This document shows, in pieces, positions 2,122-18,381 of a DNA stretch of 32,000 bases (the first letter of the stretch is position 1; the number at the start of each line of letters is the position of its first letter). The DNA is from Delftia acidovorans NBRC 14950. GTDB taxonomy: Bacteria; Pseudomonadota; Gammaproteobacteria; Burkholderiales; Burkholderiaceae_C. The position numbers and the translations under genes are program-made. Below the pieces are notes generated by a model that was not told the DNA's origin, did no database searches, and worked only from the letters and a program-made list of their open reading frames with translations. The DNA lies in NCBI RefSeq assembly GCF_001598795.1, contig NZ_BCZP01000025.1:48595-80594 (forward strand), written 5' to 3'.

Positions 2122-2592
2122 ATGTTGTACTTTCAGATGTCGGAAGATGAGTTCAACCAACTGAACCGCGTGCGAGAACAATGGGGACTCATCTCAAGCT
2201 TGCTGATTGGCGCTTACCCCAGCAATCCCATGGAGGTTGTCGATTCCAATGAGCTGCTTGCCTTTATCAATGCGCAGATTGAGGCGATGGAGGCAGTTGT
2301 GGGGGCGATAAGGCAAAGGGGCGTGATGAAACAGCTGACTGAGGAGAAAATCCTGGCGAAAGCCGTATCCGAGATCCGTCTTCTCCTGAGCGGATATCTG
2401 GGGAGCAACGTGGATGCGGATCCGAGCGTACGGATCGCAGCGCACCTGGCCTATGCCCTGCACAACGATGCATTGGCCGTGCTGGAGGGAAATGGCTTCA
2501 GCGCCGACGAAGCGCTGAAGCGGGTGGCGGCCGTGGACTCGCTTCTAGGAGTCGAGGTGGGGAGTGAATTCGTTCGCAGCTTGGAAGCTTAG
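2122..2592 (+). CDS. Hypothetical acidic all-helical protein (156 aa), no family recognised
   Basis: AAGGAG Shine-Dalgarno at 2110-2115 and ATG at 2122. It sits in a clearly lower-GC stretch, has a coding-like codon pattern and its own hairpin terminator. An alternative start exists at ATG 2137. Confidence 0.55.
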   Translation: MLYFQMSEDEFNQLNRVREQWGLISSLLIGAYPSNPMEVVDSNELLAFINAQIEAMEAVVGAIRQRGVMKQLTEEKILAKAVSEIRLLLSGYLGSNVDADPSVRIAAHLAYALHNDALAVLEGNGFSADEALKRVAAVDSLLGVEVGSEFVRSLEA

Positions 2593-2608
2593 AGCCCTCT
2601 CAAGACCA

Positions 2609-2640
2609 AGGGGCAATGACAGCATTGCCCCTTTCCTTCT
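2609..2640 (+). terminator. Rho-independent-like terminator of 2122..2592
   Basis: Perfect 10-bp stem AGGGGCAATG / CATTGCCCCT (2609-2618 and 2623-2632) with loop ACAG, followed by pyrimidine/T-rich TTCCTTCTT. It begins 16 nt after the TAG stop. Confidence 0.6.
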
Positions 2641-2873
2641 TCCCAAGCCGCCCCAGAATGCCCAGCCTCGACCTACAGTTCGCCTGCATGCGCACCAGCC
2701 AGACCTACAACGGTATGATGCCTGCCGGCACCGAACACCAACACTGATGCTTTGGAGCAGATAACAGCTCTTACCTGATTGATGCCATGGTGCGCTTGCG
2801 AGATCCGCCCCTTGAGAGCATGCGTTTATTCAATTAAAAACATCTCAGAAATGCATTCTTAATAGGAGTAGAA

Positions 2874-3176
2874 ATGCACTGCCAAAAATGTAGTCATGAA
2901 TTTCAAGCGACCGATGTTCGCTGCATCAACTGCGGAGCGACCTTGATCTATGAAGCAAACGGTCATTCCAAGGAATACAAGGAAGCCGCAAGCTTCCTGG
3001 ACTCAAAAATTTTTGCTGGAATGGGGGCCTTGATCGGATTTTCCATCGTGGCCTTTCTGTTGAAATTCATCTTTACTTCTCATTGGCTTTCAGATAGAGC
3101 AGTTTTCATGGCTGCGATGTGCGGCGGCTTGATCGGCGGTGTACTTGGACGCTTTATTCAAAAGCGCCAGCAATAA
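2874..3176 (+). CDS. Small zinc-ribbon membrane protein (100 aa)
   Basis: AGGAG Shine-Dalgarno at 2864-2868. The N-terminal CxxC-x13-CxxC (MHCQKCSHEFQATDVRCINCG) is followed by two hydrophobic segments (FAGMGALIGFSIVAFLLKFIF and AVFMAAMCGGLIGGVLG, the latter glycine-zipper-like). AT-rich upstream region and low-GC context. Confidence 0.6.
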   Translation: MHCQKCSHEFQATDVRCINCGATLIYEANGHSKEYKEAASFLDSKIFAGMGALIGFSIVAFLLKFIFTSHWLSDRAVFMAAMCGGLIGGVLGRFIQKRQQ

Positions 3177-3491
3177 TCAAAAAACGGAAGAAGGCACGAA
3201 GGCTTGGATCAGGGGTTGCATCTGTAGCCACAGTCGTTGCCTACAGGTCGTGATCGGTTCGTGCCGCATGGTGACGCGGGACATTCCGCCTAGCGTGATC
3301 GCTGCGGCCGTGCCTCACGGTGCGCGCGATCACGGATGAGGGCAAGACCGGCTTTCCTGCCCGGGCCTGCGGTCACCCGGCTCGGCAGCAGGCTCAGGCG
3401 GGCTGCCTTCCTTTCATCGGCCTGCATGATCCGGACACCACGCGGCTGCCCGAACAGCCCCATAATCTGGCTTCAAAATTTCACGACACCA

Positions 3492-3833
3492 ATGACACAG
3501 TCCCTCAAAGAACTCCTTGCGGCCAAGGCCGCGCTGGACATGGAAATTGCCAAGGCCCGCACCTCGGCGGCCGACGCTGCCCTGTCCAAGGTCCAGAAGC
3601 TGGTGACCGATTTCGGGTTCACCCAGCAGCAAGTGTTCCCCTACATCCCTGAAAAAACCAGTGCGCCGGCGAAGTATCGCGATCCGGCTACGGGAGCGAC
3701 GTGGACAGGTCGAGGCAAGCCTCCGAACTGGATCAAGGACCAGGATCGCGACGACTTCCTCATCGAAAGCAAACCCGAAGCGGCCCAAGGCCCGTTTCTC
3801 GCCGAAATGGCGGCAGCGGCAGCTCGCAACTGA
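3492..3833 (+). CDS. H-NS-like nucleoid-associated DNA-binding protein
   Basis: ORF 3336..3833 was trimmed to ATG 3492. The N-terminal coiled-coil MTQSLKELLAAKAALDMEIAKAR and the C-terminal YRDPATGATWTGRGKPPNWI match the H-NS/Bv3F-type DNA-binding motif (TW[ST]GRG..P.W). CATAAT (3459-3464) is a possible -10 box. Confidence 0.85.
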   Translation: MTQSLKELLAAKAALDMEIAKARTSAADAALSKVQKLVTDFGFTQQQVFPYIPEKTSAPAKYRDPATGATWTGRGKPPNWIKDQDRDDFLIESKPEAAQGPFLAEMAAAAARN

Positions 3834-3909
3834 AAGCGCTGCACACGGCGGCACGCAGGATGCCGTGCGGTGCGGTGGAGTTCCGATGCGAAGGAATCTG
3901 TGCCTGCCG

Positions 3910-3945
3910 AAAAAAAGCCCTCTGAGCATTCAGCGGGCTTTTTTT
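3910..3945. terminator. Bidirectional intrinsic terminator between convergent hns-like and ABM genes
   Basis: A7 tract (3910-3916), stem GCCCTCTGA / TCAGCGGGC (3917-3925 and 3930-3938, one T:C mismatch), loop GCAT, then T7 tract (3939-3945). The symmetric layout allows termination in both directions. Confidence 0.7.
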
Positions 3946-4046
3946 CCGGCCTGGCGCCGGCGACGTAGTCACTTCCGGCATCTTTCGAGGGCGTGCATCG
4001 CGCTCCGGCAGGGGGATCAGCCGGGCCTTTGCGGCACCGCAAGCGC

Positions 4047-4509: not shown

Positions 4510-5214
4510 TCAGCGGCTGCGCGCCAGGTTGGTCAGCCAGGCGGCCAGCACATTGCGCGCGGCCAGGGCCAGCAGGCCGCCGTATTTCTGGGCATCGGCA
4601 CGCAGGGTGCGCGGGTCCACCTGGGCGACGCCCAGTTCACAGGCATGGCCGACCAGCCAGCGCTCCAGCCGGGCCGCGTCGGCCTCCAGATGGAATTGCA
4701 GGCCCAGCACCTGCGGGCCCACGGCGAAGGCCTGGTTGGCGCCGATGGCGGTGCCGGCCAGGTGCACGGCGCCTTCGGGAATGTCGAACTGGTCGCCATG
4801 CCAATGGAGCACGGGCACGCCGTCCAGTTTGGCGAGGGGCGAGGCCAGGCCGGCGTCGGTGAGCGTGAGCGGCGAAAAGCCGATTTCCTTGACGCCCAGC
4901 GGGTAGACCCTGGCGCCCAGCGCGCGCGCAATGAGCTGGGCGCCCAGGCAGATGCCCAGCAGCGGCTTGCCGCTGTCCAGCCAGCGGCGCACGGCCGCCA
5001 GCTCCTGGGCGACGAAGGGATAAAGCGCCTCGTCATAGGCACCTATGGGGCCGCCCAGCACGACAAGCAGGTCGGCACGGCCCAGGTCCAGGGTGTCAAG
5101 CTCGCCGATGCTGGGATCGACGTACTGCACTTCGTAGCCGCGGCTGGCGAACTCGGCATGCAGGGTGCCCAGGTCTTCGAAGTGGATGTGGCGCAGCGCG
5201 ATGGCTTTTTTCAT
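4510..5214 (-). CDS. Stand-alone class-I glutamine amidotransferase (GuaA-N/PuuD-like)
   Basis: ORF 4510..5856 was trimmed to ATG (CAT at 5212-5214), giving 234 aa. DLLVVLGGP, the nucleophile elbow LLGICLGAQL, then HWHGD and LGLQFHLE give a complete Cys-His-Glu triad context. Confidence 0.85.
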   Translation of the reverse strand: MKKAIALRHIHFEDLGTLHAEFASRGYEVQYVDPSIGELDTLDLGRADLLVVLGGPIGAYDEALYPFVAQELAAVRRWLDSGKPLLGICLGAQLIARALGARVYPLGVKEIGFSPLTLTDAGLASPLAKLDGVPVLHWHGDQFDIPEGAVHLAGTAIGANQAFAVGPQVLGLQFHLEADAARLERWLVGHACELGVAQVDPRTLRADAQKYGGLLALAARNVLAAWLTNLARSR

Positions 5215-5264
5215 GGGAAAACTCAGGTGGATACAGGAGGATGGCTTGGAACGTGCGGAGCCAG

Positions 5265-6344
5265 TCAGGCGCCGGGCTTGAGATCGACGTGGATATGGCC
5301 TGCCGAGGGGAAGGTGCAGCAGGCCAAGGCATAGCCGGCTTCCTTTTCCCTGTCGCTGAGGCAAAAGTCCGCCTCCAGCCGTGAACTGCCTCCCGTGATG
5401 CGGATGCGGCAGCTGCCGCAGATGCCGGCCCGGCACTGGCTGCGGATGGCAATGCCCACGCCTTCCAGGATTTCCAGCAGGCTTTTGCCGGACGCGGCTT
5501 CGACAATCTGCCCGCTGTGCGCGATCTGCAGCTGGCATGCCTGCGCGGTCTCGCCTGGCTGGGCAGTGGATGCGGCAGGCGGCGTGAAGGCCTCGATGTG
5601 CTGTATGGCACCGGGAAAGCAGGCCCGCGCATGCTCGCGAAAGGTCTGCGCAAAGGCGTGGCCGCCGCAGATGACCACCGCCTGGGGCTGGCCCAGCGCC
5701 AGCAGGGACTGCTGCGAGGGGCGGCCCGGCACGAAGGGGCCGTGGGCGGCAATGTCTTCGCGCGTGATGTGGATACGCAGGTCGAACCAGGGGGCCGTTT
5801 CGCACAGCTGCTGCAGCTCCTGCAGGAACGGAATGTCGGCCATGCGCGCAAAGCACAGCAGCAGCGTAGTGCGCGGCACGCGCCGGCCCTGCTGTTGCAG
5901 CCGGTCCAGTTCGCGCAGCAGCGCCAGCGGCAGGGTCAGGCCGATGCCGCCGGCCAGCATGACCAGGCAGTCCAGGCCCAGCACCAGGTCGGCCGTGATG
6001 TCACCGGCCACGTGGCCGAGCGGCAGCGTGGAGCCTGCGCGCAGCACCGCATGCATGTGGTCGGAGACGCTGCCCCGGCCCGAGCTTTTGACGGCAATGT
6101 CGAACTGGCCGGCGCCGTCGTGCTCGCTGCAGGGCTCGTAGCGGGTGATGGAGTACAGCCGCTGCTGCACGGCGCCACTGGCGTCGGGATGCTCGACGGC
6201 CACATGCCGACCGGGCCGCAGGCCGCCGAGGAACTGCGCCGAGGCGCCCTGCACGCGCAGGGTGTAGACCATGACGCCGCCCGCCTCTGCCCGTGCCGCG
6301 GCGCAGCGCGCCAGCGTGCTGCCTGCCTGGAGGGCGGCGCTCAT
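5265..6344 (-). CDS. FNR-like flavin reductase with C-terminal plant-type [2Fe-2S] ferredoxin domain (PDR/VanB/PaaE domain order)
   Basis: ORF 5265..7124 was trimmed to ATG (CAT 6342-6344), giving 359 aa. It has the flavin motif RLYSIT, the NAD(P) motif MLAGGIGLTLP, and the cluster motif CRAGICGSC...ALACC. Its start codon overlaps the stop of the upstream oxygenase (ATGA). Confidence 0.85.
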   Translation of the reverse strand: MSAALQAGSTLARCAAARAEAGGVMVYTLRVQGASAQFLGGLRPGRHVAVEHPDASGAVQQRLYSITRYEPCSEHDGAGQFDIAVKSSGRGSVSDHMHAVLRAGSTLPLGHVAGDITADLVLGLDCLVMLAGGIGLTLPLALLRELDRLQQQGRRVPRTTLLLCFARMADIPFLQELQQLCETAPWFDLRIHITREDIAAHGPFVPGRPSQQSLLALGQPQAVVICGGHAFAQTFREHARACFPGAIQHIEAFTPPAASTAQPGETAQACQLQIAHSGQIVEAASGKSLLEILEGVGIAIRSQCRAGICGSCRIRITGGSSRLEADFCLSDREKEAGYALACCTFPSAGHIHVDLKPGA

Positions 6345-7303
6345 GCCTGCATCTCCTCGAGGACCGAGGACACCAGCGCCACGCTGCCGCCCAGGTTGCG
6401 GCCCGCAAGGCCGATGCGGTCGATCAGGCTTTGCACCGAGTCGGTGTAGACGCCGATCTCGTTGCTGTCGCCCACGTCGTGCAGGATGTCGCGCGCATGC
6501 GGCATGCCGACCATGGTGAAGACGGTGGACCAGGCGCCCAGTTCGTTGTTGGCGAACATCTGCACGGTCTTGAGGATGATGGAGCGCAGGTAGCTGCGCT
6601 CGCGGTTGCTCAGGCCCTGGACGATGTCGGTGGCCACCGAGCTGAAGACGCTGGAGTGGCTCCATTCGTCCACGGCGTGGGTGCGCGTGACCTCGTGGCA
6701 GATGGGCTGGATGGAGCGGTCCTCGGCCATGGTCTTGAGGTAGTCGGTGATCAGGGTCTCGCTGGCACAGGCAATGGCGAAGCGGGCCAGGCGGCGCTCC
6801 CATTCCGCGCCGCACTGCGCCAGCACGCCGTTGCGCCAGCCGACGAGGTTGAAGTCCGCGTAGTCCAGCGGCGCCAGGCCGCGCATCTCGTAGATGTAGT
6901 TGCAGGCCATGATGGACATGCGGGTGTGCAGGGCCTCGTCCAGCAGGGCCTGGGACATGACGTCCTGCAGCAGCGCCCGGTTGGCGCTGGGCGGCGGGGT
7001 CTTGATGATGTCCTCGCAGGCCGGCGTGACCACGTTGCACTCGATGTAGATGGTCTTGAGGTTGTAGATGCCCCAGGCGTAGGACAGGCATTGGTCGCGC
7101 AGGTGCTGTGGCGCCTCCACCCATGCCTGGTGGTCGCGAAACGGCAGCAGCGAGGCGGTGAAGTCCTGCCGGGCGGGGTCGAACGCCAAGCCGCAGTAAT
7201 CAGGCAGGTCCTGATTCACGGCCGCTCTTGACTTCCAGAGCAGGGACAGCTTTTTGAGCGCATCGCGCACGGCGTCATCTGTCCGAGAGATATCGAGATT
7301 CAT
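6341..7303 (-). CDS. AurF/CmlI-family (PF11583-like) non-heme diiron oxygenase
   Basis: 320 aa. Ligand motifs appear in AurF order: IECNVVTPA (Glu), LLDEALHTRM (E..H), ACASETLITDYL (Glu), THAVDEWSHSS (H-x3-E-x2-H with the extra His typical of AurF). The N-terminal SRAAVNQDLPDY resembles AurF RRAAVVNKADI. GGAG Shine-Dalgarno lies 7 nt upstream. Confidence 0.8.
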   Translation of the reverse strand: MNLDISRTDDAVRDALKKLSLLWKSRAAVNQDLPDYCGLAFDPARQDFTASLLPFRDHQAWVEAPQHLRDQCLSYAWGIYNLKTIYIECNVVTPACEDIIKTPPPSANRALLQDVMSQALLDEALHTRMSIMACNYIYEMRGLAPLDYADFNLVGWRNGVLAQCGAEWERRLARFAIACASETLITDYLKTMAEDRSIQPICHEVTRTHAVDEWSHSSVFSSVATDIVQGLSNRERSYLRSIILKTVQMFANNELGAWSTVFTMVGMPHARDILHDVGDSNEIGVYTDSVQSLIDRIGLAGRNLGGSVALVSSVLEEMQA

Positions 7304-7384
7304 TTTTCAACTCCGTGTAATTGAACTTGGTTGATCTGAGTCAAATCGCCTATTCCCTCCCCCCGCTTTCTCCATCCGCCGCAA

Positions 7385-7456
7385 TCACCAATGGCGCTGC
7401 AAATGACGATGCAAATGACGATGCACATGGCGCTTCAAATGACGCTGCAGATGGCA
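7385..7456. repeat. Six degenerate tandem copies of a 12-bp unit (consensus approx. MTGCAAATGRCG)
   Basis: TCACCAATGGCG / CTGCAAATGACG / ATGCAAATGACG / ATGCACATGGCG / CTTCAAATGACG / CTGCAGATGGCA. The array lies in a low-GC divergent intergenic region, 82-153 bp upstream of the AurF-like start. Confidence 0.8.
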
Positions 7457-7821
7457 GATACGTTGTCATGGATTTCTTCACTCTGTCATATTCCGCCTTG
7501 AATCAATCTGCCCGACTGCAAATTGCGGATGATTCCTGGCGGTATTGAATCTCATGACTTTCAACGTCTGGCGGCGAATTCTATGGAGACAGCGTGGATT
7601 CAAACAGACCTATTTTCGTCAATGAACCAGACCGCTTTTTCAACGGTTTACATTGGCATGCCACCTTAATTGGTCTGCTCACCCGCTGAAACATGGTCGG
7701 AATCAAGGCAGCTGCACTTTGTAGACTGCCCATTACCGATGCGCCCTGGTTTCCAAATCCTTCCATAACCCGGGCGCTGCCGATTCCCGTGCTTCAGCGC
7801 CTCCAAGACAGCCAATGCGAC

Positions 7822-9102
7822 ATGGACGATTTATCGCTCCCCAAAATCAATTCACTGGATCTTCAACAGGCAGACAGCGAGGCCTGGGATGCCATCGCGG
7901 CCGAGCGGATTCGCCAGTCGCGCTCGATTGAATTGATTGCCTCTGAAAACTTCGTGAGCCGCGCGGTGATGGAGGCGCAGGGCTCGGTGCTGACCAACAA
8001 ATACGCCGAGGGCTATCCGGGCGTGCGCTACTACGGCGGCTGCGCCAATGCCGATGCCGTCGAGAACCTGGCCATTGCGCGTGCCAAGGCGCTGTTCGGC
8101 TGCGCGCACGCCAACGTGCAGCCGCATTCGGGCAGCCAGGCCAACCAGGGCGTGTACCTGGCCTTTCTGGAGCCTGGCGACAAGATCATGGGGCTGGACC
8201 TGCGCTCGGGCGGGCACCTGACGCATGGCTCCCGCGTGAGCGTGTCGGGCAAGTGGTTCCAGTCCATCAGCTACGAGGTGGACGCCCGCTCCCAGCGCAT
8301 CGACATGGACCAGGTGCGGCGCATTGCGCTGAAGGAGCGGCCCAGGCTCATCATTGCCGGTGGCTCGGCCTATTCACGGCAGATGGACTGGGCCGAGTTC
8401 CGGCGCATTGCCGACCGGGTGGGCGCCATCTTCATGGCCGACATCGCGCACGTGGCGGGGCTGGTGGCCGCGGGCGTGTTCCCCTCCCCCGTGGAGCACG
8501 CCCATGTGACCACGACCACCACGCACAAGACGCTGCGCGGGCCGCGCGGCGGCATGATCCTCTCGGCCGACGCCGAGATCGCCAGGCGCATAGACGCCGC
8601 CGTGTTTCCGGGCCTGCAGTCCGGGCCGCTGATGCATGTGGTGGCGGCCAAGGCGGTGGCGCTGGGCGAGGCGCTCAAGCCCGCCTTCCGCACCTATGCG
8701 CGGGCCGTGGTGGACAACGCCCGCGTGCTGTGCGACCGGCTTTCGCAGGGCGGACTGTCCGTGGTCTCCGCAGGCACGGACTGCCATCTGGGCGTGATCG
8801 ACCTGCGCCCCTGGGAGCTGACGGGCAAGGCCGCCGAAACGGCGCTGGAGCAGATCGGCATCACGGTCAACAAGAACGCCGTGCCCGGCGATGGCGCGCG
8901 GCCGCTGGTGACCTCGGGCATCCGCGTGGGCAGCGCGGCCTGCACCACGCGCGGCATGGGCGCCGACGAGTTCCGCGAGATCGGCGACATGATTCTTGCC
9001 ACGCTGGGCGGCATACGCAGCGGCACCATGAACGCGCGCACGCTCAAGTCCATCCACGAAGGCGTGTCCGACCTCACCGGGCGCTTTCCCCTGCCCTATT
9101 GA
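7822..9102 (+). CDS. Serine hydroxymethyltransferase-family PLP enzyme, divergent paralog (SHMT-1)
   Basis: ORF 7693..9102 was trimmed to ATG 7822 by alignment logic (17 residues before [12 protein letters not shown]...IELIASENF). It contains [16 protein letters not shown] and the PLP-lysine motif [14 protein letters not shown]. There is no clear Shine-Dalgarno, so the start is uncertain. QSGP and PGDGARP replace the QGGP and PNDPRSP seen in the second copy. Confidence 0.85.
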
Positions 9103-9132: not shown

Positions 9133-10647
9133 TCAGGGTTTTCGCAGCGCGTTGGCCAGGCGCAGCACGGCGGCCTCGATCTCGTAGGCCGTGAGGGAGG
9201 CATAGCCCAGCAGCCAGCCCGGCTGCCGCTGCTCGCCCGCGTACAGGCGGCTGAGCCCCTGCAGCAGCACGCCGGCCGCGGCGGCGCGGCGGATAGTGTC
9301 TTCCTCGGACCAGCCGGGCTCCAGCAGGCAGGGCACCTGCATGCCGCCCTGGGGCCGTGGCGCGGTGACGATGCCGGCCAGGTGCCTGCCTATGGATTCG
9401 AGGATGACCTCGCGCCGCCCCGCGTACAGCTTGCGCATGGCCCGCACGTGGGAGTTGTAGTGGCCGTCTTCCATGAAGCGCGCCAGCGTCAGCTGCTGGA
9501 TCTGGGGCGTGTGCCCGTCCATGATGCTGCGCGCCTGGACAAAGGCGCGCACCAGCTCCTGCGGCAAGGCCATGTAGCCCATGCGCAGGCCCGGGTACAG
9601 GGTCTTGCCGAAGGTGCCGATGTAGATGGTGCGCCCGTGCTTGTCCAGGCCTTGCACGCAGGCGGTGGGCATGCCGTCGTAGTGGAATTCGCTGTCGTAG
9701 TCGTCCTCGATGATCCAGCGCCCGCTCTCGAACGCCCATCGGATCAGGTCCAGCCGCCGCTCCAGCTGCATGGTGACGCCCGTGGGGTACTGGTGCGATG
9801 GCGTGACGTAGACGCAGGTGGCGCCGCTGCGGTCGGCATGCAGCAGGTCCGTGCGAATGCCTTGCGCGTCCACGTCGATGGGCAGGACCTTGGCCTCCGC
9901 CGACTCGAAGGCCTTGCGGGCGCCGAAGTAGCCGGGGTTCTCCAGCAGGATGGGCCGGCCCGCGTCCACCAGCAGCTGCGCGCACAGGAACAGCGCCTGC
10001 CGCGTGCTGCTGAGCACCACGATCTGCCCGGCGTCCACCTTGGCGCCGCGCTCCAGGTTGAGGTAAGTGGCAATGGCCTTGCGCAGCGGCTCGGCGCCCT
10101 GCGGGTCGCCGTGCAGCAGGACGCTGGCGCGGTAGTCCTTGAGCGCCTGCCGCTGCAGCCGCTCCCAGACATCGGTGGGAAAGGTTCGCGTCTCGGGCAG
10201 GCCGGTGGCAAAGGCCCGAATGGTCTGCTGGTCGGCGATGCCGCCGCCGTCAACAATGGCCTGGCCGCGCCGGCTCAGGCCGGCACCGGCCCTGCCCGCT
10301 GCGGCCACCTGGGCGCTGCGCTCGTGCTCGGGCGACCGGCCGCGCCGCGCCGCCCGGCCCCGCAGCTCGGTGCCGATGGTCTCGGAGACATAGCTGCCCG
10401 ATCCCTGGCGCCGCACGATGAAGCCGTCGCGGTGCAGCTGGGTGTAGGCGTTCTCCACCGTGTCGCGGGCAATGCCCAGCGAGTCGGCCAGCGAGCGCGT
10501 GGCCGGCAGCTTCAGGCCGGGCAGCAGAGCTCCGTCCAGGATGAGCGCACGCATGGCGCGCTGCACCCGCTGGTGCAGGTCCAGCTGGCGCAGGTCGGCA
10601 TCTCCCATGCGGATCTTCAGGGTCTCAAGCTCGAAGGTCTTGCTCAT
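9133..10647 (-). CDS. MocR/PdxR/GabR-type regulator (GntR wHTH fused to fold-type-I aminotransferase domain)
   Basis: 504 aa. The N-terminal L.LPATRSLADSLGIARDTVENAYTQLHRDGFIVRRQGSGSYV is a GntR HTH. A long C-terminal aminotransferase-like domain follows (YGDPQG, TPSHQYPTG, IYIGTFGKTLYPGLRMGY with the PLP Lys). Confidence 0.9.
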   Translation of the reverse strand: MSKTFELETLKIRMGDADLRQLDLHQRVQRAMRALILDGALLPGLKLPATRSLADSLGIARDTVENAYTQLHRDGFIVRRQGSGSYVSETIGTELRGRAARRGRSPEHERSAQVAAAGRAGAGLSRRGQAIVDGGGIADQQTIRAFATGLPETRTFPTDVWERLQRQALKDYRASVLLHGDPQGAEPLRKAIATYLNLERGAKVDAGQIVVLSSTRQALFLCAQLLVDAGRPILLENPGYFGARKAFESAEAKVLPIDVDAQGIRTDLLHADRSGATCVYVTPSHQYPTGVTMQLERRLDLIRWAFESGRWIIEDDYDSEFHYDGMPTACVQGLDKHGRTIYIGTFGKTLYPGLRMGYMALPQELVRAFVQARSIMDGHTPQIQQLTLARFMEDGHYNSHVRAMRKLYAGRREVILESIGRHLAGIVTAPRPQGGMQVPCLLEPGWSEEDTIRRAAAAGVLLQGLSRLYAGEQRQPGWLLGYASLTAYEIEAAVLRLANALRKP

Positions 10648-10838
10648 GCGGTCTGCTGCCTTTCATCTCATTACACCTCTTGGGCAGGCCATTGTACTGA
10701 CGCAAACGCTGCGCACCCATTGCAAAGTGGTCTGAAACAAGAGAGCGAAGTGTATGGATCATTCAGTCCACTTCGGCGCTCAAATACCCCTTTCCCCAGA
10801 CAGCCAGGAATCCAACCCCCAAGGAAAACGAGAAGACC

Positions 10839-12095
10839 ATGCCTTCATCAGACACACACTCACCCCTTCGCTTCAGAGACCTCATCCACCCCGTTGTGGC
10901 CGGGCTGATCTCGGTCATCGTCAACTACGGCGGCACCTTCATCCTGGTGTTCCAGGCCGCCAAGGTGGCCGGCCTGAGCCCGGAACTCACGGCTTCGTGG
11001 GTGTGGTCGATTTCGATTGGCGTGGGCGTCACCGGGCTGGTGCTGAGCTGGCTCTCGCGCGAGCCCATCATCACGGCCTGGTCCACGCCGGCCGCCGCTT
11101 TCCTGGTGACGGCCCTGGCCACCACGCCGTATGCCGAGGCCGTGGGCGCCTATGTGGTGTCGGCCGCGGCCTTCGTGGTGCTGGGACTGTCGGGCTGGTT
11201 CGAGCGCGTGATCCGGCTGATTCCGCCCGGCGTGGCCTCGGGCCTGCTGGCGGGCATCCTGCTGCAGTTCGGCATCAAGGCCTTTGGCGGCATGAGCGTG
11301 GACCCGCTGTTGGCCGGCCTGCTGATCGTGGCCTATGTGCTGCTCAAGCGGCTCACGGCGCGCTATGCGGTGGTCGGCATCCTGGCGCTGGGCATGGCGT
11401 TCCTGCTGGCGCAGGACCGTGTGGACCTGTCCGGGCTGCAGCTGCGATTCGCGGCGCCGGTGTTCACACGGCCGGAATTCACGCTCAACGCCCTGCTCAG
11501 CGTGGCCCTGCCGCTGTTCCTGATCACGCTGACCGGCCAGTACATGCCCGGCATGCTGGTGCTGCGCAACGACGGCTTCAAGACCAGCGCCAACCCCATC
11601 GTCACGCTGACGGGCCTGGGCTCGCTGCTGATGGCGCCGTTCGGCTCGCACGCCTTCAACATCGCCGCCATCACGGCCGCCATCTGCACGGGCAAGGAGG
11701 CGCATGAAGAGCCGTCCAGGCGCTGGATCGCGGGCATCGCTGCGGGCGTGTTCTACATCCTGGTGGGCGTGTTCGGCGTCACGCTGGCGGCCGTGTTCAT
11801 GGCGTTCCCGGCCACCTTCATCACCACGCTGGCGGGCCTGGCGCTGCTGGGCACCATCGGCGGCAGCCTGGCCAATGCGCTGGCCGACGCCAAAACCCGC
11901 GAGGCCTCGCTGATCACCTTCCTGGCTGCCGCAGCCAACATTTCCATGCTGGGCATAGGCGGCGCCTTCTGGGGCCTGGTCATCGGCCTGGTCGCCCATG
12001 CCGTGCTCAACGGCCAGTGGCCGCGCCGGGCCGCCCGCAGCGAGGCGGGCACCGGCAACGTGCCCGCCGCCGATGCCGCCATCAAAAGGAGCTGA
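10839..12095 (+). CDS. benE: BenE-family (benzoate:H+ symporter family) membrane transporter
   Basis: 418 aa and polytopic. VAGLISVIVNYGGTFILVFQAAKVAGLS...ASWVWSISIGVG and TAWSTPAAAFLV match BenE family signatures. It is divergent from MocR. Confidence 0.8.
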   Translation: MPSSDTHSPLRFRDLIHPVVAGLISVIVNYGGTFILVFQAAKVAGLSPELTASWVWSISIGVGVTGLVLSWLSREPIITAWSTPAAAFLVTALATTPYAEAVGAYVVSAAAFVVLGLSGWFERVIRLIPPGVASGLLAGILLQFGIKAFGGMSVDPLLAGLLIVAYVLLKRLTARYAVVGILALGMAFLLAQDRVDLSGLQLRFAAPVFTRPEFTLNALLSVALPLFLITLTGQYMPGMLVLRNDGFKTSANPIVTLTGLGSLLMAPFGSHAFNIAAITAAICTGKEAHEEPSRRWIAGIAAGVFYILVGVFGVTLAAVFMAFPATFITTLAGLALLGTIGGSLANALADAKTREASLITFLAAAANISMLGIGGAFWGLVIGLVAHAVLNGQWPRRAARSEAGTGNVPAADAAIKRS

Positions 12096-12099
12096 AACC

Positions 12100-12951
12100 A
12101 TGCTTTCGACACAAGACACCACCGGCGGCACCGCCCAAGCCGCCGACACCCTGACCCGCCACGACCAGCACGGCCGCTACCCCCAGGCCGAGACGGTGGA
12201 CGATTTCCGGCACAACCTGGCCACCGTGCAGGCGCGCATGGCCGCTGCGTGCCGCCGCGCAGGGCGCGACCCGGCCAGCGTGCGCCTGCTGCCCGTGAGC
12301 AAGACCAAGCCCGAATCCAGCCTGCGCCTGGCCCACGCGGCGGGCTGCCGCATGCTGGGCGAGAACAAGGTGCAGGAAGCCTTCGGCAAGTGGGAGGCCA
12401 TGCAGGACCTGGCCGATCTGCAGTGGTCCGTCATCGGCCACCTGCAGACCAACAAGGCCAGGCTGGTGGCACGCTTTGCCAGCGAGTTCCAGGCGCTGGA
12501 CAACCTGCGCGTGGCCGAGGCGCTGGACCGCCGCCTGCAGGCCGAAGGCCGGGCGCTGGACGTGTTCGTGCAGGTCAACACCTCGGGCGAGGCCAGCAAA
12601 TACGGCCTGCCGCCCGACGAGGTGCAGGGATTTGTCCAGGCCCTGCCCGCCTTCAGTGCGCTGCGCGTGCGCGGCCTGATGACGCTGGCCCTGTTCTCCA
12701 GCGAGGCCGAGCGCGTGCGCCAGTGCTTCGTGCTGCTGCGCAGCCTGCGCGACCAGCTGCGCCAGAGCGCGCCGGCGGGCATCTCGCTGGATGAGCTGTC
12801 CATGGGCATGTCCGGCGACTTCGAGATCGCCATCGAGGAAGGCGCCACCGTGGTGCGCGTGGGCCAGGCCATCTTCGGTGCCCGCGCCCAGCCGGACAGC
12901 TTTTACTGGCCCGCAGGCGGCCCCGATCCCGCGGCCCTGGCACTGCCCTGA
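12100..12951 (+). CDS. yggS: YggS/PLPBP-family PLP-binding protein (alanine-racemase N-terminal fold) with N- and C-terminal extensions
   Basis: ORF 11998..12951 was trimmed to ATG 12100, preceded by AAAAGGAG. It contains VRLLPVSKTKP (PLP Lys), GENKVQE, W..IGHLQTNK, LSMGMSGDFE.AIE.GAT.VRVG.AIFG. The start is 4 nt after the benE stop. Confidence 0.85.
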   Translation: MLSTQDTTGGTAQAADTLTRHDQHGRYPQAETVDDFRHNLATVQARMAAACRRAGRDPASVRLLPVSKTKPESSLRLAHAAGCRMLGENKVQEAFGKWEAMQDLADLQWSVIGHLQTNKARLVARFASEFQALDNLRVAEALDRRLQAEGRALDVFVQVNTSGEASKYGLPPDEVQGFVQALPAFSALRVRGLMTLALFSSEAERVRQCFVLLRSLRDQLRQSAPAGISLDELSMGMSGDFEIAIEEGATVVRVGQAIFGARAQPDSFYWPAGGPDPAALALP

Positions 12952-13008
12952 ACGCGCCCCCTCGCCACCCTTTTCGATTCAACCCTGACCCCGCTTGAGG
13001 ACCTTGAC

Positions 13009-14247
13009 ATGCAAAAAGCCATGCAACCCCTTGATTCCCGCCTGATGAAGGCCTATGCCCGCCAGCCCGTCTCCTTCGTCCGTGGCCGTGGAGCCCTGCT
13101 GTGGGACGAGCACGGCAACGAATACCTGGACGCCATTGCCGGCGTGGCAGTGACCGCCCTGGGCCACGCCCATCCGGAGATCGCCGCCGTGATCGCCGAG
13201 CAGGCCGGCCTGCTGCTGCACACCTCCAACGTGTTCCGCATCGACTGGCAGGAACGCCTGGGCCAGCGCCTGTGCTCCCTGGCCGGCATGGAGACGGCCT
13301 TCTTCTGCAACTCCGGCGCCGAGGCCAATGAGGCCGCGCTCAAGCTGGCGCGCCTGCACGGCCACCGCAGGCAGGTGGCGCGGCCGCAGATCCTGGTGAT
13401 GGACAACGGCTTTCACGGCCGCACACTGGCCACGCTGTCGGCCACGGGCAACCCGGCTAAGCAGCGCGGCTTCGAGCCGCTGATGCCGGGCTTCGTGCGC
13501 GTGCCCTATGACGACATCGCGGCCGTGCACCACGCCGCCGCCCAGCATGGCGACATCGTGGCCGTGCTGATCGAGCCCGTGCAGGGCGAAGGCGGCATCC
13601 GCCTGGCAAGCCCCGACTACCTGCGCCAGCTGCGCAGCCTGTGCGACCGGCATGGCTGGCTGCTGATGCTGGACGAGATCCAGACCGGCCTGGGACGCAC
13701 CGGCGCCTGGTTCGGCCACCAGCACGCGGGTATCACCCCCGATGTGATGACCCTGGCCAAGGCCCTGGGCAACGGCATTCCTATCGGCGCCTGCCTGGCG
13801 CGCGGGCCTGCGGCCGACCTGATCTCGCCCGGCCAGCATGGCTCCACCTTCGGCGGCAACCCGCTGGCCTGCCGCGTGGGGTGCACGGTGCTGGACATCA
13901 TGGAGAGCGAGGACATCCCCGGCCGCGCCAGGCAACTGGGCCGGCGCCTGCTCAACGGCCTGCAGCAGGCGCTGCACGGCCACCCCGACGTGCTGGCCGT
14001 GCGCGGCCAGGGCCTGATGGTGGGCATCGAGTTGAACCGCAACTGCCAGGACCTGGTGGGCCGCGCGCTGGCCCAGCAGCGCCTGCTGATCACGGTGACG
14101 CGCGAATCCACCATCCGCCTGCTGCCGCCGCTGATATGTGACGAGCGCCAGATCGACGACATCGTCGCCCGCGTAGCCTGCCTGCTGGAGCCGGCCAGCG
14201 CCGCGCAGGCAGGCGCCCCCGCCGCAGGCCAGCTGGCAGCTGCATGA
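13009..14247 (+). CDS. Class-III (ArgD/acetylornithine/omega-amine type) PLP aminotransferase
   Basis: 412 aa. [11 protein letters not shown]...[76 protein letters not shown] Shine-Dalgarno upstream. Confidence 0.9.
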
Positions 14248-14293
14248 CCATCGATTCCCCCAGCCCTTGCCCCGACACAGGAACCACTCACCC

Positions 14294-15568
14294 ATGTACG
14301 ACGCATCCCTGACCCTGGCCGACTTCGACCTGCAGCTGGCCAAGGCCATCCAGAGCGAGAAACGCCGCCAGGAAGACCATGTGGAACTCATCGCCTCCGA
14401 AAACTACGCCAGCCCGCTGGTGATGGCGGTGCAGAACTCGGTCTTCACCAACAAGTACGCCGAGGGCTATCCCGGCAAGCGCTACTACAGCGGCTGCGAG
14501 AACGTGGACGTGGCCGAGCGCCTGGCCGTGGAACGCGCCATGGCGCTGTTCGACTGCGACTACGCCAACGTGCAGCCCCATGCCGGCGCCCAGGCCAATG
14601 CCGCCGTGTTCCTGGCGCTGGCCCAGCCCGGCGACACCGTCATGGGCATGAACCTGGCCCAGGGCGGCCACCTGACGCATGGCAACCCGTCCAACTTCTC
14701 GGGCCGCCATTACCGCATCGTCCCCTACGGCCTGGACCCCGCCACGGGCCTGATCGACTACGACGAGATGGAGCGCATCGCCCTGGAGCACCGGCCCCGC
14801 ATGCTCATCGGCGGCTTCTCTGCCTACTCGCGCCACAAGGACTGGGCCCGCATGCGCGCCATTGCCGACAAGGTGGGCGCCGTGTTCTGGGTGGACATGG
14901 CCCATGTGGCAGGCCTGGTGGCTGCGGGCGAATACCCCAGCCCACTGCCCCACGCGCATGTGGTCACCAGCACCACGCACAAGACGCTGCGCGGCCCGCG
15001 CGGCGGCCTGATCCTGTCCAAGGGACAGGACGAAACCTTCAACCGCCGCCTGAGCTCGGCCGTGTTCCCCGGCGTGCAGGGCGGGCCGCTGATGCATGTG
15101 ATCGCCGCAAAGGCCGTCGCCTTCAAGGAGGCGCTGCAGCCCGGCTTCAAGACCTACCAGCGCCAGGTGCTGGCCAACGCCCGCGCCATGGCCGCCGTGA
15201 TCCAGCAGCGCGGCTACCGCATCGTCTCGGGCGGCACGGACAACCACCTGATGCTGATCGACCTGTCCGACCGCAGCTACACCGGCAAGGATGCCGACGC
15301 CGCGCTCAGCGAGGCGCACATCACCACCAACAAGAACACCGTGCCCAACGACCCGCGCTCGCCCTTCGTGACCTCGGGCCTGCGCATAGGCACGCCCGCC
15401 GTCACCACGCGCGGCTTCGGCCAGGCGCAGTGCGAACAGCTGGCCGGCTGGCTGTGCGATGTACTCGATGCGCTGGACGCGCAGGAAGGCGCCCGCTTTG
15501 CCAAGGTGGCGGCGCAGGTCAGGGAGCAAGTGACGGGGCTTTGCGCCCGCTATCCGGTGTACGGATAG
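14294..15568 (+). CDS. glyA: Serine hydroxymethyltransferase, canonical GlyA-like (SHMT-2)
   Basis: ORF 14267..15568 was trimmed to ATG 14294. It is close to collinear with enterobacterial GlyA as I recall it: [86 protein letters not shown], and C-terminal CARYPVYG. Confidence 0.9.
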
Positions 15569-15589: not shown

Positions 15590-16648
15590 TCAGGGGTTGG
15601 CGTTGAGGTTGGGGTTGGCGCAGGCGCCGTCCATACCCGCCATCTCCGCCAGCTTCTGCATGCGCGAGCGCTGGTCCAGGCAGGCCTGGTGCTGGGCTTC
15701 GGCCGCCTTTTGCTGCGCCAGCTTCGCGGCCTTGGCGCGCTCGGCCTGCAGTTGGACGATGCGCTCGCGGATCTGGGGCATGGCGGCCACGGCGGCCTTC
15801 TCGCCTTCAAGAATGGCGCTGGCGCGCTGGGTGAAGTCGGCCGGGCCGATGTCCAGCACCTTGGGGCGGATGGTGATGTCGGCGCGGGCCAGCTCGGCCT
15901 GGCCCAGCTTCTGGCCCATGATGGCAATGGACTGGCCCAGTGCGCCCAGCATGTTCTCGGGCGCCTTGCCACGGGCCTTGTTGGAGATGTCCACGGCAAT
16001 CACCAGGTCGGCGCCCAGCTGGCGCGCGGCGTCCACGGGCACGGGGCTGGTGATGCCGCCATCGACGAAGTGGAACTTGCCGATGGCCACGGGCTGGAAC
16101 ACACCCGGAATGCTGCTGGAGGCACGCACCGCCTGCCCCGTATTGCCGCGCGCGAACACGGTGCGCTCGCCGTCTTCCAGCCGCGTGGACAAGGCCACGA
16201 AGGGCTTGGCCAGCTGCTCCAGCGGCTTGCGGCCCACCTGTTCGTTCACATAGTCTTCCAGCTTCTGCCCCACCAGCAGGCCGCCCGAGGACAGCTGGAG
16301 GTCGCGGATCCTGGTCTCATCCAGCGCCACGGCCTTTTCCTGCAGCTCGAAGGCGTTCATGCCGCTCGCATACAGCGCCCCCACCACGCTGCCCGCGCTG
16401 GTGCCGGACACCACCGCAGGCGCAAGGCCATTGGCTTCCAGCATCTTGATGACGCCGATATGGGCAAAGCCCTTCACGGCCCCGCCGCCCAGGGCCAGAC
16501 CGATCCTGATGGGCGCCACGGGCGTGCCCGGCGCGGTGGGCGTGGACTCGGGCGTGGCCGCCGAGGGGCTGGGCGGGTTGCTGCCGCAAGCGGCCAGCCC
16601 CGCCAGGCTCAGGTACACCAGTGGACGCAAAAGGGCTTGGAGGCGCAT
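15590..16648 (-). CDS. Patatin-like phospholipase, lipoprotein (RssA/YchK-like)
   Basis: 352 aa. Lipobox LSLAGLAAC, oxyanion GLALGGGAVKGFAHIGV, nucleophile GTSAGS, and catalytic DGG (FVDGGITSP). The C-terminal tail is Ala/Lys/Gln-rich and coiled-coil-like. Confidence 0.85.
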   Translation of the reverse strand: MRLQALLRPLVYLSLAGLAACGSNPPSPSAATPESTPTAPGTPVAPIRIGLALGGGAVKGFAHIGVIKMLEANGLAPAVVSGTSAGSVVGALYASGMNAFELQEKAVALDETRIRDLQLSSGGLLVGQKLEDYVNEQVGRKPLEQLAKPFVALSTRLEDGERTVFARGNTGQAVRASSSIPGVFQPVAIGKFHFVDGGITSPVPVDAARQLGADLVIAVDISNKARGKAPENMLGALGQSIAIMGQKLGQAELARADITIRPKVLDIGPADFTQRASAILEGEKAAVAAMPQIRERIVQLQAERAKAAKLAQQKAAEAQHQACLDQRSRMQKLAEMAGMDGACANPNLNANP

Positions 16649-16723: not shown

Positions 16724-17626
16724 TCAGGCTCTGGGCTTCAGCAAGCCGCCCATCCCCTGCACAGCCTCCCGCAAAAACCCCCAGACCGCCTCAATGCGCT
16801 GAACCTGCCGGGCATCCGAGGGCATGCTCATCCAGAAGGTGCGGGTGAAGCAGGCCTCGGCGGGCAGGACGCGGCTGAGCACGGGGTCGCGGTCGGCGAT
16901 GAAGGCAGGCAGCACGGCCAAGCCGGCGCCTGCGCGCACGGCCTCATACTGGGCAGTGATGCTGGTGCTGCGAAAGGCAAATCGCTCGGGCTGGAACAGG
17001 GTGGACAGCAGCTGCAGCTCGCGCGTGAACAGCAGGTCGTCCACATAGTGGATGAAGCTGTGGTGGCGCAGGTCCTCGGTGCGCGCCACCAGGGGGCGGC
17101 GCGCAAGGTATTCGCGCTGGCCGTAGAGGAACAGCCGGTAGTCGGTGAGCTTGGTGACCACGGCCGAGCCGCGCGTGGGGCGCTCCAGCGAGATGACGAT
17201 GTCGGCCTCGCGCCGCGACAGGTGCAGCAGGCGCGGCAGGGCCAGCAGGTCGATGCTCAGCAGCGGATGGCGCTGCGTCAGCGCGGCCAGCTGCGGGGCC
17301 AGCAGCTGGGTGCCGAAGCCCTCGGTGGCGCCCACGCGCACCAGGCCGGACGGTCCCTGGCTGGTGGATTCCGCCGCCAGCGGCATGCGCTCCAGCCCGG
17401 CGGCGGCGCGCTGCATGGCGTCTGCCACGCCCAGCAGCTGTCGGCCGGCCTCCGTGGGCCGCCATTGGCCCGCTTCACGCTCGAAGAGCACGGCCCCCAG
17501 CTGTTTTTCCAGGGCCTGGATGCGGCGCGACACCGTGGTGTGCTCCACGCCCAGGCGCCGCGCGGCGGCGGCCATGCTGCCGCTGCGCGCCAGCTCGCCA
17601 AAGAATCTCAGGTGGTCCCAGTCCAT
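16724..17626 (-). CDS. LysR-family transcriptional regulator
   Basis: ORF 16724..18379 was trimmed to ATG (CAT 17624-17626), giving 300 aa. MDWDHLRFFGELARSGSMAAAARRLGVEHTTVSRRIQALE is a LysR HTH, followed by a substrate-binding domain. Confidence 0.9.
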   Translation of the reverse strand: MDWDHLRFFGELARSGSMAAAARRLGVEHTTVSRRIQALEKQLGAVLFEREAGQWRPTEAGRQLLGVADAMQRAAAGLERMPLAAESTSQGPSGLVRVGATEGFGTQLLAPQLAALTQRHPLLSIDLLALPRLLHLSRREADIVISLERPTRGSAVVTKLTDYRLFLYGQREYLARRPLVARTEDLRHHSFIHYVDDLLFTRELQLLSTLFQPERFAFRSTSITAQYEAVRAGAGLAVLPAFIADRDPVLSRVLPAEACFTRTFWMSMPSDARQVQRIEAVWGFLREAVQGMGGLLKPRA

Positions 17627-17640
17627 GGGTCGAGGCCGCC

Positions 17641-18132
17641 TCAGTCGGCTGCGGCGCGGCGCGCGGCCAGCGTGCTGGGCGCACGCGCCAGGTCGTCGTT
17701 TTGCCGCACCAGGACGGCCATCATGTCCATGAACAGGCCCCGCTGCTCCTGCGGCAGCGGCTCCAGCATGCGCTGCTGGGCCCGCAGCACCGAGGGCTCG
17801 GCAGCGGCCAGCAGCGCGGCGCCTTCTGCGGTGACCGACAGCAGGCGCACTCGCCGGTCGGCCGGGCTGGTGTTGCGCACCATGAGGCCGCGCGCCTCCA
17901 GCCGGTCGATGACGCTGCCGATGGTCGAGGTATCGAAGCCGATCATCCGCGCCAGCGTGCGCTGGTCCACGCCGGGCTGGCGCAGCACGGCCGACAGCGC
18001 CGCGTACTGCACGGGGGTCACGCCGAATTCCTGGGTCTCCTCCATGAAGACGGCTACCGCGATCTGCTGCAGGCGGCGGATGTGGTAGCCGGGGTAGTTT
18101 TCTAGTTCTGCGGGTTGGTAGTCCATGGCCAT
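17641..18132 (-). CDS. MarR-family transcriptional regulator (divergent from the gentisate operon)
   Basis: ORF 17641..18312 was trimmed to ATG (CAT 18130-18132), giving 163 aa. It has GYHIRRLQQ, GVTPVQYAALSAV, DQRTLARMIGFDTSTIGSVIDRLEARGL and DRRVRLLSVT winged-helix motifs. Its stop is 14 nt from the LysR start. Confidence 0.85.
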   Translation of the reverse strand: MAMDYQPAELENYPGYHIRRLQQIAVAVFMEETQEFGVTPVQYAALSAVLRQPGVDQRTLARMIGFDTSTIGSVIDRLEARGLMVRNTSPADRRVRLLSVTAEGAALLAAAEPSVLRAQQRMLEPLPQEQRGLFMDMMAVLVRQNDDLARAPSTLAARRAAAD

Positions 18133-18327
18133 TGCGCTCTTTTCCGGGTCCCTGCGGGCAAGCGCAGATGTTCGCATGAACCGCGCCCTCCGTTGGCGTT
18201 GGCTGGCGGACAGGTGATTCAACCGGACACGCTGTCCACCACCGTTTTGCCTGCATCCAGGGAAACCCCAGGCTGGCCTGATGCAAATCAACACTACACT
18301 CATCGTCAGCATACTGTTTAATTACTC

Positions 18328-18345
18328 GCGACGCAGCTGCCTCGC
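18328..18345. promoter_or_regulatory. Imperfect 18-bp palindrome, candidate operator upstream of the hydroxylase gene
   Basis: GCGACGCAGCTGCCTCGC is symmetric about CAGCTG with one mismatched pair, 37 nt upstream of ATG 18382. It sits next to the only AT-rich stretch (CATACTGTTTAATTAC) of the divergent MarR/hydroxylase region. Confidence 0.3.
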
Positions 18346-18381
18346 AGGCGGGCGACACGCACCACGAAGCACAGGACATCC

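Follow-up and report, generated by a model that had tools for sequence, protein, structure and literature searches.

The window analysed here, a 32,000-nucleotide (nt) stretch of DNA from Delftia acidovorans NBRC 14950 (contig NZ_BCZP01000025.1; about 68% G+C, in a source genome of 6.63 Mb), encodes a regulator of the MocR family that is divergent from a compact set of four genes: a BenE-family permease, a paralog of the pyridoxal 5'-phosphate (PLP) homeostasis protein YggS (here YggS2), an ArgD-like class-III aminotransferase, and a serine hydroxymethyltransferase (SHMT-dn). On the other side of the regulator lie a second SHMT gene (SHMT-up) and dnfA, dnfB and dnfC, the hydroxylamine-forming genes of direct ammonia oxidation (dirammox). 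We consider it reasonably probable that this locus is a PLP-homeostasis and vitamin B6-salvage module belonging to the proteobacterial MocR regulons of PdxR/DnfR type, with one PLP-responsive regulator co-controlling the operon and the dirammox genes, and that the module keeps PLP supply and PLP-dependent biosynthesis going.

The gene set itself is already known, having been predicted for Delftia in 2016. In the reconstruction of MocR regulons by Suvorova & Rodionov (2016; PMC5320631), the supplement lists for D. acidovorans SPH-1 (Daci_3711) a 'PdxR (Proteobacteria)' regulon of ArgD, BenE, COG325 and GlyA, a content identical to that of the window operon, and BenE is named as a putative pyridoxine transporter; variants in Thauera (sp. 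MZ1T, Tmz1t_0986), Comamonas, Rhodospirillum and Rhodopseudomonas add PdxK, BioF or GuaA, and both PdxK and the GuaA-family amidotransferase match members of the related loci described below. A preliminary description of the locus was fair in calling the arrangement not a textbook one, but the arrangement already stood in the literature. The 2016 regulog is, however, a computational table from which the dirammox genes (not known in 2016) are absent, and in the text of its supplement, which gives the regulon table only, no operator motif for PdxR (Proteobacteria) was found; the operator presented here was therefore derived in this analysis. New here are the apparent identity of the regulator with DnfR, the predicted sharing of an operator, its three-box architecture, the conserved YggS motifs, and the occurrence of DnfC-like genes mainly in the PLP module.

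All five genes that the preliminary description had read as a MocR regulator divergent from benE-yggS-aminotransferase-SHMT were recovered where it had placed them (Table 1), with family matches above curated cut-offs. The benE/yggS, yggS/aminotransferase and aminotransferase/SHMT gaps measure 4, 57 and 46 nt, the last with the SHMT start at ATG 14294; the yggS ATG does begin 4 nt past the benE stop, as described, and is preceded by a Shine-Dalgarno sequence, AAAGGAG. A terminator scan gave no plus-strand terminator-like hairpin within the operon; its three terminator-like sites, all on the minus strand, do not exceed the count in shuffled sequences, and the scan was judged uninformative, as was a consensus promoter scan that returned a single promoter-like site at about 7463-7492. 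The PLP lysine is kept in all four PLP-fold proteins (K348 of the MocR regulator, K68 of YggS2, K251 of the aminotransferase and K230 of SHMT-dn). SHMT-up diverges from dnfA and converges on the MocR gene, and a 518-bp AT-rich region separates it from the minus-strand genes dnfA-dnfB-dnfC; SHMT-up and dnfABC all lie outside the frame of the preliminary description.

The regulator carries PF00392 (residues 25-87) and PF00155 (residues 159-445), scores 427.1 bits against the NCBIfam PdxR equivalog NF052282 (cut-off 320), and falls below the cut-off of each of the MocR, GabR, EhuR and PtsJ models in the NCBIfam scan. Its GTFGK motif (K348) aligns with GTFSK (K312) of the GabR structure 4n0b, and the protein is recognisable as a PLP-binding member of the MocR family. 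It would be an orthologue of DnfR, the MocR protein of the dnfT1RT2ABCD dirammox cluster in Alcaligenes faecalis JQ135 and A. ammonioxydans HO-1, which likewise adjoins dnfABC and a dnfT2-like SHMT gene. An Alcaligenes-type dnf cluster (L099, G450:C14), reached by a search centred on a Paenalcaligenes genome and linked to Alcaligenes by the gene order published in PMC9136411, runs SerC-like / MocR / SHMT / DnfA (75%) / DnfB / DnfC / PdxK; its MocR protein is 77% identical to the window regulator over residues 1-503 and also scores as NCBIfam PdxR, and SHMT-up is 62% identical to the SHMT encoded between dnfR and dnfA. Because of this identity, the PdxR score, the dnfT1RT2ABCD order and the operator elements in common, the 'PdxR (Proteobacteria)' regulator and the dirammox regulator DnfR appear to form one orthologous group.

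The two systems nevertheless differ in several respects. The divergent partner of the regulator is benE-yggS-aminotransferase-SHMT in the window and the SerC-like dnfT1 followed by glyA in the Alcaligenes type; pdxK (dnfD) is part of the Alcaligenes dnf cluster and missing from the window cluster; and, unlike the Alcaligenes arrangement, DnfR-type regulators with a benE-yggS2 operon also occur in genomes without dnfA. At positions 3741-6206 of L099 the SerC-like dnfT1 is followed on the same strand by an extra SHMT gene, whose product is 77% identical to SHMT-dn, so that dnfT1-glyA diverges from dnfR, one gene beyond what the name dnfT1RT2ABCD covers.

The DnfR site, quoted in PMC13689441 as GGTCTG-N17-GGTCTG, stands in exact form before dnfA in the DnfR system and in the window alike. 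It has a single copy in the whole genome, in the dnfA/SHMT-up region; since chance alone would give about 1.9 copies in a genome of this size, being the single copy is not significant in itself, and the significance of the box lies in its position (P ~1.5e-4 for a chance occurrence in this 518-bp region). The dnfA region of L099 has the same element, AAGTGGTCTG-N13-AAATGGTCTG, and the dnfR leader of L099 ends in CAGACCGCATG, exactly as in the window. Rfam and tRNA scans of the window gave no matches, so that no riboswitch accounts for the AT-rich region at 7304-7821. Upstream of the DnfR box in this region, at 7397-7460, stand about five head-to-tail copies of 12-bp units resembling GCAAATGACGAT.

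Between the MocR gene and benE, where the preliminary description had suggested looking for repeated MocR boxes, three conserved boxes are present. An inverted repeat, AAGTGGTCTGAA / TTCAGTCCACTT, was confirmed, and the 10-mer A(A/G)TGG(A/T)CTGA, of which the genome has seven copies, occurs twice here in inverted orientation, 37 bp apart. The operator is unique in the genome, and an alignment of control regions shows it conserved in six other genomes, at seven type-I loci (including L090, L091, L092, L007, L029 and L019) whose regulators are 68-94% identical to that of the window. These loci come from three congeneric species, a Comamonadaceae metagenome-assembled genome (MAG), Delftia sp. PS-11 and Halomonas garicola. 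The conserved layout reads AAAGTGGTCTG - 12-13 nt - AAAGTG(T/C)A - about 10 nt - CAGTCCA(C/T)T - 8 nt - TATAAA, and another GGTCTG abuts the regulator start codon; in loci with a MocR protein about 50% identical, a short inverted repeat, AA(A/G)TGGC-N12-GCCATT, stands at the same distance from TATAAA. The same half-site is thus recognisable in the benE operator and in the dnfA/SHMT-up region, and we infer that the regulator binds both control regions.

Table 1. Features of the MocR-benE-yggS2 and dnf region, with positions in the window
Feature	Position	Strand	Basis or remark
dnfC, class-I glutamine amidotransferase	4510-5268	-	Pfam; PDB 9xfs match, E 7e-99
dnfB, FNR-like reductase with 2Fe-2S domain	5265-6344	-	Pfam
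dnfA, AurF-family diiron N-oxygenase	6341-7303	-	Pfam
DnfR-type box GGTCTG-N17-GGTCTG	7605-7633	-	within dnfA/SHMT-up divergent region
Third GGTCTG	7672-7677	+	39 nt beyond DnfR box
SHMT-up, dnfT2-like	7822-9102	+	PF00464, 536 bits; PLP motif present; likely coordinates
MocR regulator, PdxR/DnfR type, 504 amino acids	9133-10647	-	GntR + Aminotran_1_2; NCBIfam PdxR
Divergent control region, 191 bp	10648-10838		between MocR gene and benE
GGTCTG abutting MocR start codon	10650-10655		control region
GGCCATT	10687-10693		control region
Box 1, AAAGTGGTCTG	10724-10734		three-box operator
Box 2, AAGTGTAT	10748-10755		three-box operator; ~24 nt after Box 1
Box 3, CAGTCCACTT (inverted)	10764-10773		three-box operator
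-10-like TCAAAT	10780-10785		6 nt past operator end
BenE-family permease, 418 amino acids, putative B6-vitamer transporter	10839-12095	+	PF03594, TIGR00843
YggS/PLPHP paralog YggS2, 283 amino acids	12100-12951	+	TIGR00044
Class-III aminotransferase, ArgD-like paralog	13009-14247	+	TIGR00707
SHMT-dn	14294-15568	+	NF000586; open reading frame (ORF) opens 14267, likely start ATG 14294
Patatin-like phospholipase (RssA-like)	15590-16648	-	convergent, begins directly after SHMT-dn stop
LysR-type regulator ORF	16724-18379	-	helix-turn-helix and substrate domains only at residues 254-540

Each of the four operon genes is an accessory paralog; their distribution is patchy, and plasmids carry them too. 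The genome holds two yggS and three SHMT genes in total, and each operon gene has a second copy elsewhere: for SHMT-dn on contig C32 (58% identity, next to an nrdR-like gene), for the aminotransferase on C3 (48%, next to an ornithine carbamoyltransferase-like gene, argF), for yggS on C2 (37%, next to pilT-like genes), and for benE on C4 (43%, not within a benzoate cluster), the nrdR-, ornithine carbamoyltransferase- and pilT-like neighbours being assigned from their translations rather than with family models. Among 30 relatives searched, nearly all have a detectable glyA of the C32 type and argD of the C3 type. Of 17 species in the genus, about 7 have the MocR-benE-yggS block, and only one has all five genes of the unit. 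The idea of a housekeeping operon built on sole copies of its genes, which the preliminary description had set against its own proposal, is ruled out by these second copies: yggS, glyA, argD and benE are all duplicated. Since pdxJ and a pyridoxal kinase gene (pdxK) are present, the genome is able both to make and to salvage PLP.

The permease gives a full-length match to PF03594 (426.8 bits) and scores 380 against TIGR00843 (cut-off 203); it is 77-90% identical to the BenE proteins of MocR-linked loci, and would carry a B6 vitamer. YggS2 scores 196.5 bits against TIGR00044 (cut-off 106.25) and is a single-domain fold-type-III barrel, of which residues 34-263 align with E. coli YggS (1w8g; K68 here, K36 there). 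The N- and C-terminal extensions noted in the preliminary description are real and recur across orthologues; in the structure match they are covered by no solved structure, and their motifs, TRHDxHGxYPxA (N-terminal) and LPDSxYWP (C-terminal), are conserved in 25 of the 69 family members examined, including Stenotrophomonas copies with no MocR neighbour. An AlphaFold2 model (predicted local distance difference test score, pLDDT, 91.8) shows alternating strands and helices with disordered extreme ends, the mean pLDDT being 87 over residues 21-30 and 80 over residues 261-270. A Pfam scan matched Ala_racemase_N only, the Ala_racemase_C domain being absent from YggS2, and the C-terminal tail of 20 residues is the short conserved LPDSxYWP motif rather than a domain; nothing in the extensions appears to point to catalysis, and YggS2 would serve to load PLP onto apo-enzymes.

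The aminotransferase scores 455 bits against TIGR00707 (argD; cut-off 410), retains K251, and has acetylornithine aminotransferases as its nearest solved structures; a role in arginine biosynthesis does not seem to be implied, however, because the argF-linked argD copy sits on C3. For SHMT-dn the preliminary impression of a canonical-looking enzyme was borne out: ATG 14294 gives a canonical N-terminus, and the protein has a full-length match to NF000586 (629.9 bits) and a T-T-T-H-K-type PLP motif with K230. It is 81-88% identical to the products of the SHMT genes that close MocR-linked operons elsewhere.

For the wider distribution of the module, 80 loci encoding close relatives of YggS2 were fetched and their neighbouring genes clustered. 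YggS, BenE, aminotransferase and SHMT proteins 74-90% identical to those of the window occur in Burkholderiales, Xanthomonadales, Pseudomonadales and Enterobacterales, whereas in most of the 80 loci the adjoining MocR protein is only about 50% identical to that of the window. A MocR gene lies nearby in about 33 of these loci, BenE in 16, the aminotransferase in 14, SHMT in 11 and pyridoxal kinase, with pdxK following yggS2, in 13. In three alphaproteobacterial loci (L062, L064, L066), MocR-SHMT-YggS faces a divergent BenE-PdxK pair; vitamin-salvage loci are usually laid out in this way, with a transporter next to a trapping kinase.

Elsewhere the operon is found in fuller form. In Acidovorax facilis it runs benE-yggS-amidotransferase-pdxK-aminotransferase-trpA-glyA-LysR, and on the conjugative Pseudomonas plasmid pBYT1-1 (L096, NZ_CP072560.1, 160960-171349; RefSeq annotation) a MocR gene is divergent from an expanded module, benE-yggS-GNAT-glutamine amidotransferase-pdxK-aminotransferase-trpB-trpA-glyA, whose genes overlap (translationally coupled) and which is followed by a LysR gene. 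This type of YggS was found in 21 plasmid records. Given the plasmid carriage and the fuller operons, the window holds a short version of a mobile module, and its variable cargo appears to consist of B6-salvage functions and biosynthetic PLP enzymes rather than of the steps of one catabolic route. A LysR gene also closes the module in Acidovorax, in the genome G411 and on pBYT1-1; that of the window probably has its real start inside the ORF, given the positions of its domains.

Genes dnfA and dnfB lie near yggS2 in only 2 of the 80 loci. In Pokkaliibacter (L032), yggS2, dnfA, dnfB, dnfC, pdxK and an aminotransferase gene form one co-directional string, and in Jeongeupia (L052) yggS2, dnfABC, pdxK and an aminotransferase gene lie within one cluster. 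A DnfC-like amidotransferase (45-66% identical to the window DnfC) follows yggS2 in 18 of the 80 loci (including L006, L015, L018, L021, L025, L026, L028, L029 and L042), 16 of which have neither dnfA nor dnfB within 7 kb, and DnfC homologues seem to belong primarily to the PLP module. A search for DnfA across the class (400 genomes) gave distant homologues only, and DnfA is absent from five other species of the genus that have MocR-benE-yggS2, three of them with a DnfR-type regulator. In the closest relative (L090, G411:C5; regulator 94% identical), the benE-yggS-aminotransferase-SHMT operon and dnfC are intact, and dnfA, most of dnfB and SHMT-up have been lost. The frequency of modules without dnfA and dnfB, together with this decay, leads us to regard the PLP module as the older and more general unit, to which dirammox genes were joined in some lineages. 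In L090 the stretch at 12210-13140, which runs from the MocR gene to an intact dnfC, retains only pieces of SHMT-up, dnfB and the control region between dnfA and SHMT-up. L090 also has no counterpart of the patatin-like gene that stands between SHMT-dn and the LysR gene here. The G+C content of the window falls to 54-59% at 2001-4000, just beyond the dnf cluster, compared with about 68% elsewhere, and this may mark a border of acquired DNA.

Control of yggS by a MocR protein has a published precedent. In Alcaligenes faecalis JQ135, PhpR, another MocR protein, represses the divergent yggS in a PLP-dependent manner, PLP strengthening its binding (PMC13689441, 2026); the Alcaligenes YggS binds PLP and affects PLP levels, its deletion raising intracellular PLP 7.5-fold, and orthologues from E. 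coli, yeast and mouse can take its place (PMC13689441). This YggS very probably belongs to the same extended subfamily as YggS2, the PLP lysine being K55 in Alcaligenes, K68 in the window and K58 in an orthologue from Paenalcaligenes that is 84% identical to YggS2. PhpR itself represents a different MocR lineage (PhpR-like regulators have about 430 amino acids and are about 25% identical to the window regulator), recognises one site without repeats, TATGTCATAGGTCAAAATG, and reportedly controls no gene other than yggS (PMC13689441). Short MocR genes beside yggS2 in Pantoea, Pokkaliibacter, a Halothiobacillaceae MAG and a Proteobacteria MAG (L012, L032, L043, L045, L056) come with boxes such as TTTGTCCTATGACA or TTTTGTCATAGGACAAA that resemble TATGTCATAGGTCAAAATG, and the yggS-phpR module may not be restricted to Alcaligenes, contrary to PMC13689441. 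The dnfA leader of L099 contains TTGTCATAGGA, which also resembles the PhpR site. In Firmicutes and Actinobacteria, PLP-sensing MocR proteins named PdxR control B6 salvage or synthesis (PdxR-pdxKU and PdxR-pdxST). Their operators likewise combine direct and inverted repeats; unlike the window, however, these regulons contain no spare PLP enzymes and no YggS, and the transporter of the pdxKU system is PdxU (ECF/COG4720), not BenE.

On these grounds the locus can be given a tentative mechanism. The regulator would sense the PLP state of the cell, as PdxR, PhpR and DnfR, with the PLP lysine, suggest by precedent, and would co-control two units: benE-yggS2-argD2-glyA and the hydroxylamine-forming dirammox genes. 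The operon would supply a B6-vitamer permease (probable), a PLP carrier that passes the cofactor on to apo-enzymes, and additional copies of two PLP enzymes that are both abundant and essential. Most likely, the module would maintain the supply of PLP and let biosynthesis that depends on it continue when free PLP runs short or is trapped, and its expression should rise at low PLP, by analogy with PdxR and PhpR. Several points weigh against this interpretation. To our knowledge, carriage of a B6 vitamer has been shown for no protein of the BenE family. A 2023 survey counts three characterised prokaryotic B6 transporters, BenE not among them (PMC9997740). The genome is that of a B6 prototroph, in which a need for uptake is not obvious; the window operon has no pdxK, the logic of salvage being borrowed from the fuller versions elsewhere; the advantage of spare ArgD and SHMT copies is unexplained; and co-transcription is predicted from the short gaps, the missing plus-strand terminator-like sites and the overlapping genes of orthologous operons.

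Hydroxylamine is a classical PLP-trapping reagent, and for this reason we hypothesize that trapping underlies the local coupling of the operon to dnfABC; a literature search found no paper tying the two together. Extended to the module as a whole, the idea would make the operon a self-protection set for dirammox against endogenous hydroxylamine, which captures PLP as its oxime and poisons PLP enzymes, and a DnfR-type regulator would induce carrier, replacement enzymes and permease (for import of B6 or removal of oximes) along with dnfABC, a reading that we think rather unlikely. It draws on the same half-site before both divergons and on the apparent orthology with DnfR; on stable oximes that hydroxylamines form with enzyme-bound PLP (PMC11557217); on the pdxK (dnfD), SHMT (dnfT2) and SerC/PdxF-like (dnfT1) genes that published dirammox clusters carry (PMC9136411); and on a 2026 survey of dirammox clusters, which records for those of Delftia a DnfR homologue and, as poorly studied neighbours, hmoA, yggS and 'bioA' (PMC13753816), the 'bioA' of the dirammox literature in Delftia being the ArgD-like aminotransferase of the window. 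The clustering of yggS2, dnfABC, pdxK and aminotransferase in Pokkaliibacter and Jeongeupia is in line with it as well, but these are the only two of the 80 loci with dnfA or dnfB close by, five genomes of the genus have the module and no dnfA at all, and the closest relative has kept the operon while losing dnfA, most of dnfB and SHMT-up. Because the module is widespread without dnfA, protection from self-made hydroxylamine is not its general function and would at most be a local use. A bolder version, to which we give little credence, would make dirammox an offshoot of the PLP-homeostasis regulon rather than a nitrogen pathway in its own right: the signal of DnfR, as a PLP sensor of PdxR type, could be the PLP state, for example a PLP-oxime formed with hydroxylamine; DnfC would belong first of all to the yggS2/pdxK operon, in keeping with the 16 of 18 loci where it follows yggS2 and dnfA and dnfB are missing; the nitrogen intermediate made by DnfC and oxidised by DnfA could be a B6 vitamer or a PLP-bound amine; and BenE, YggS2, the aminotransferase and SHMT would be working parts or guardians of this chemistry.

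The module might instead answer an excess of PLP, with BenE as an exporter of B6 vitamers that are damaged or in surplus, and with free, reactive PLP being taken up by YggS and by PLP enzymes present in abundance. Sequence does not tell in which direction BenE transports, but characterised BenE is an importer (family annotation). The 7.5-fold rise in PLP on yggS deletion in Alcaligenes means that this type of YggS limits free PLP, yet PLP strengthens PhpR repression of yggS, so that expression falls at high PLP (PMC13689441), and pdxK, which makes PLP, is often in the same operon; we hold such an excess response to be improbable. Still less probable is the catabolic route offered as one of two alternatives in the preliminary description, in which an omega-amino or beta-hydroxy amino acid imported by BenE would be transaminated and then split in a retro-aldol reaction of SHMT type, the extended YggS serving as a racemase. 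The operon beside the MocR gene does combine a transporter with an aminotransferase of omega type and an SHMT capable of aldolase activity, some members of the MocR family (GabR, TauR) sense amino compounds, and the YggS extensions are conserved with no explained role. The regulator, however, scores as PdxR and not as GabR, EhuR or TauR; in the related loci the module has no conserved companion among dehydrogenase, deaminase or further downstream catabolic genes, its variable members there being pdxK, trpBA, GNAT and glutamine amidotransferase genes; the PLP enzymes that join the operon (ArgD-like, TrpBA, GlyA) are biosynthetic and do not form a catabolic series; and the racemase role of YggS2 was rejected, since YggS2 has no racemase C-domain and its Alcaligenes relative, apparently of the same subfamily, is an ordinary PLP-binding homeostasis protein replaceable by E. 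coli and mouse orthologues (PMC13689441). The other alternative of the preliminary description, B6 uptake and homeostasis with BenE as the transporter, is the better of its two readings: it fits the published PdxR regulon, the presence of pdxK in or beside the operon, the BenE-PdxK pairs and the conserved operator.

Understood as a PLP-homeostasis and B6-salvage module, the locus bears on two fields. Gram-negative B6 transporters are still largely unidentified (PMC9997740), and the 2016 prediction for BenE could be tested with this locus and its plasmid-borne relatives. The literatures on the PdxR regulon and on dirammox DnfR appear to treat one orthologous regulator, and this link offers a lead on the ligand of DnfR and the substrate of DnfC, since B6 is common to every accessory gene of these clusters; the finding would gain interest if the connection between B6 and dirammox proves mechanistic. 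If the interpretation is true, a PLP-sensing regulon with spare ArgD, TrpBA and GlyA would represent a response to cofactor shortage analogous to that of metal-sparing paralogs.

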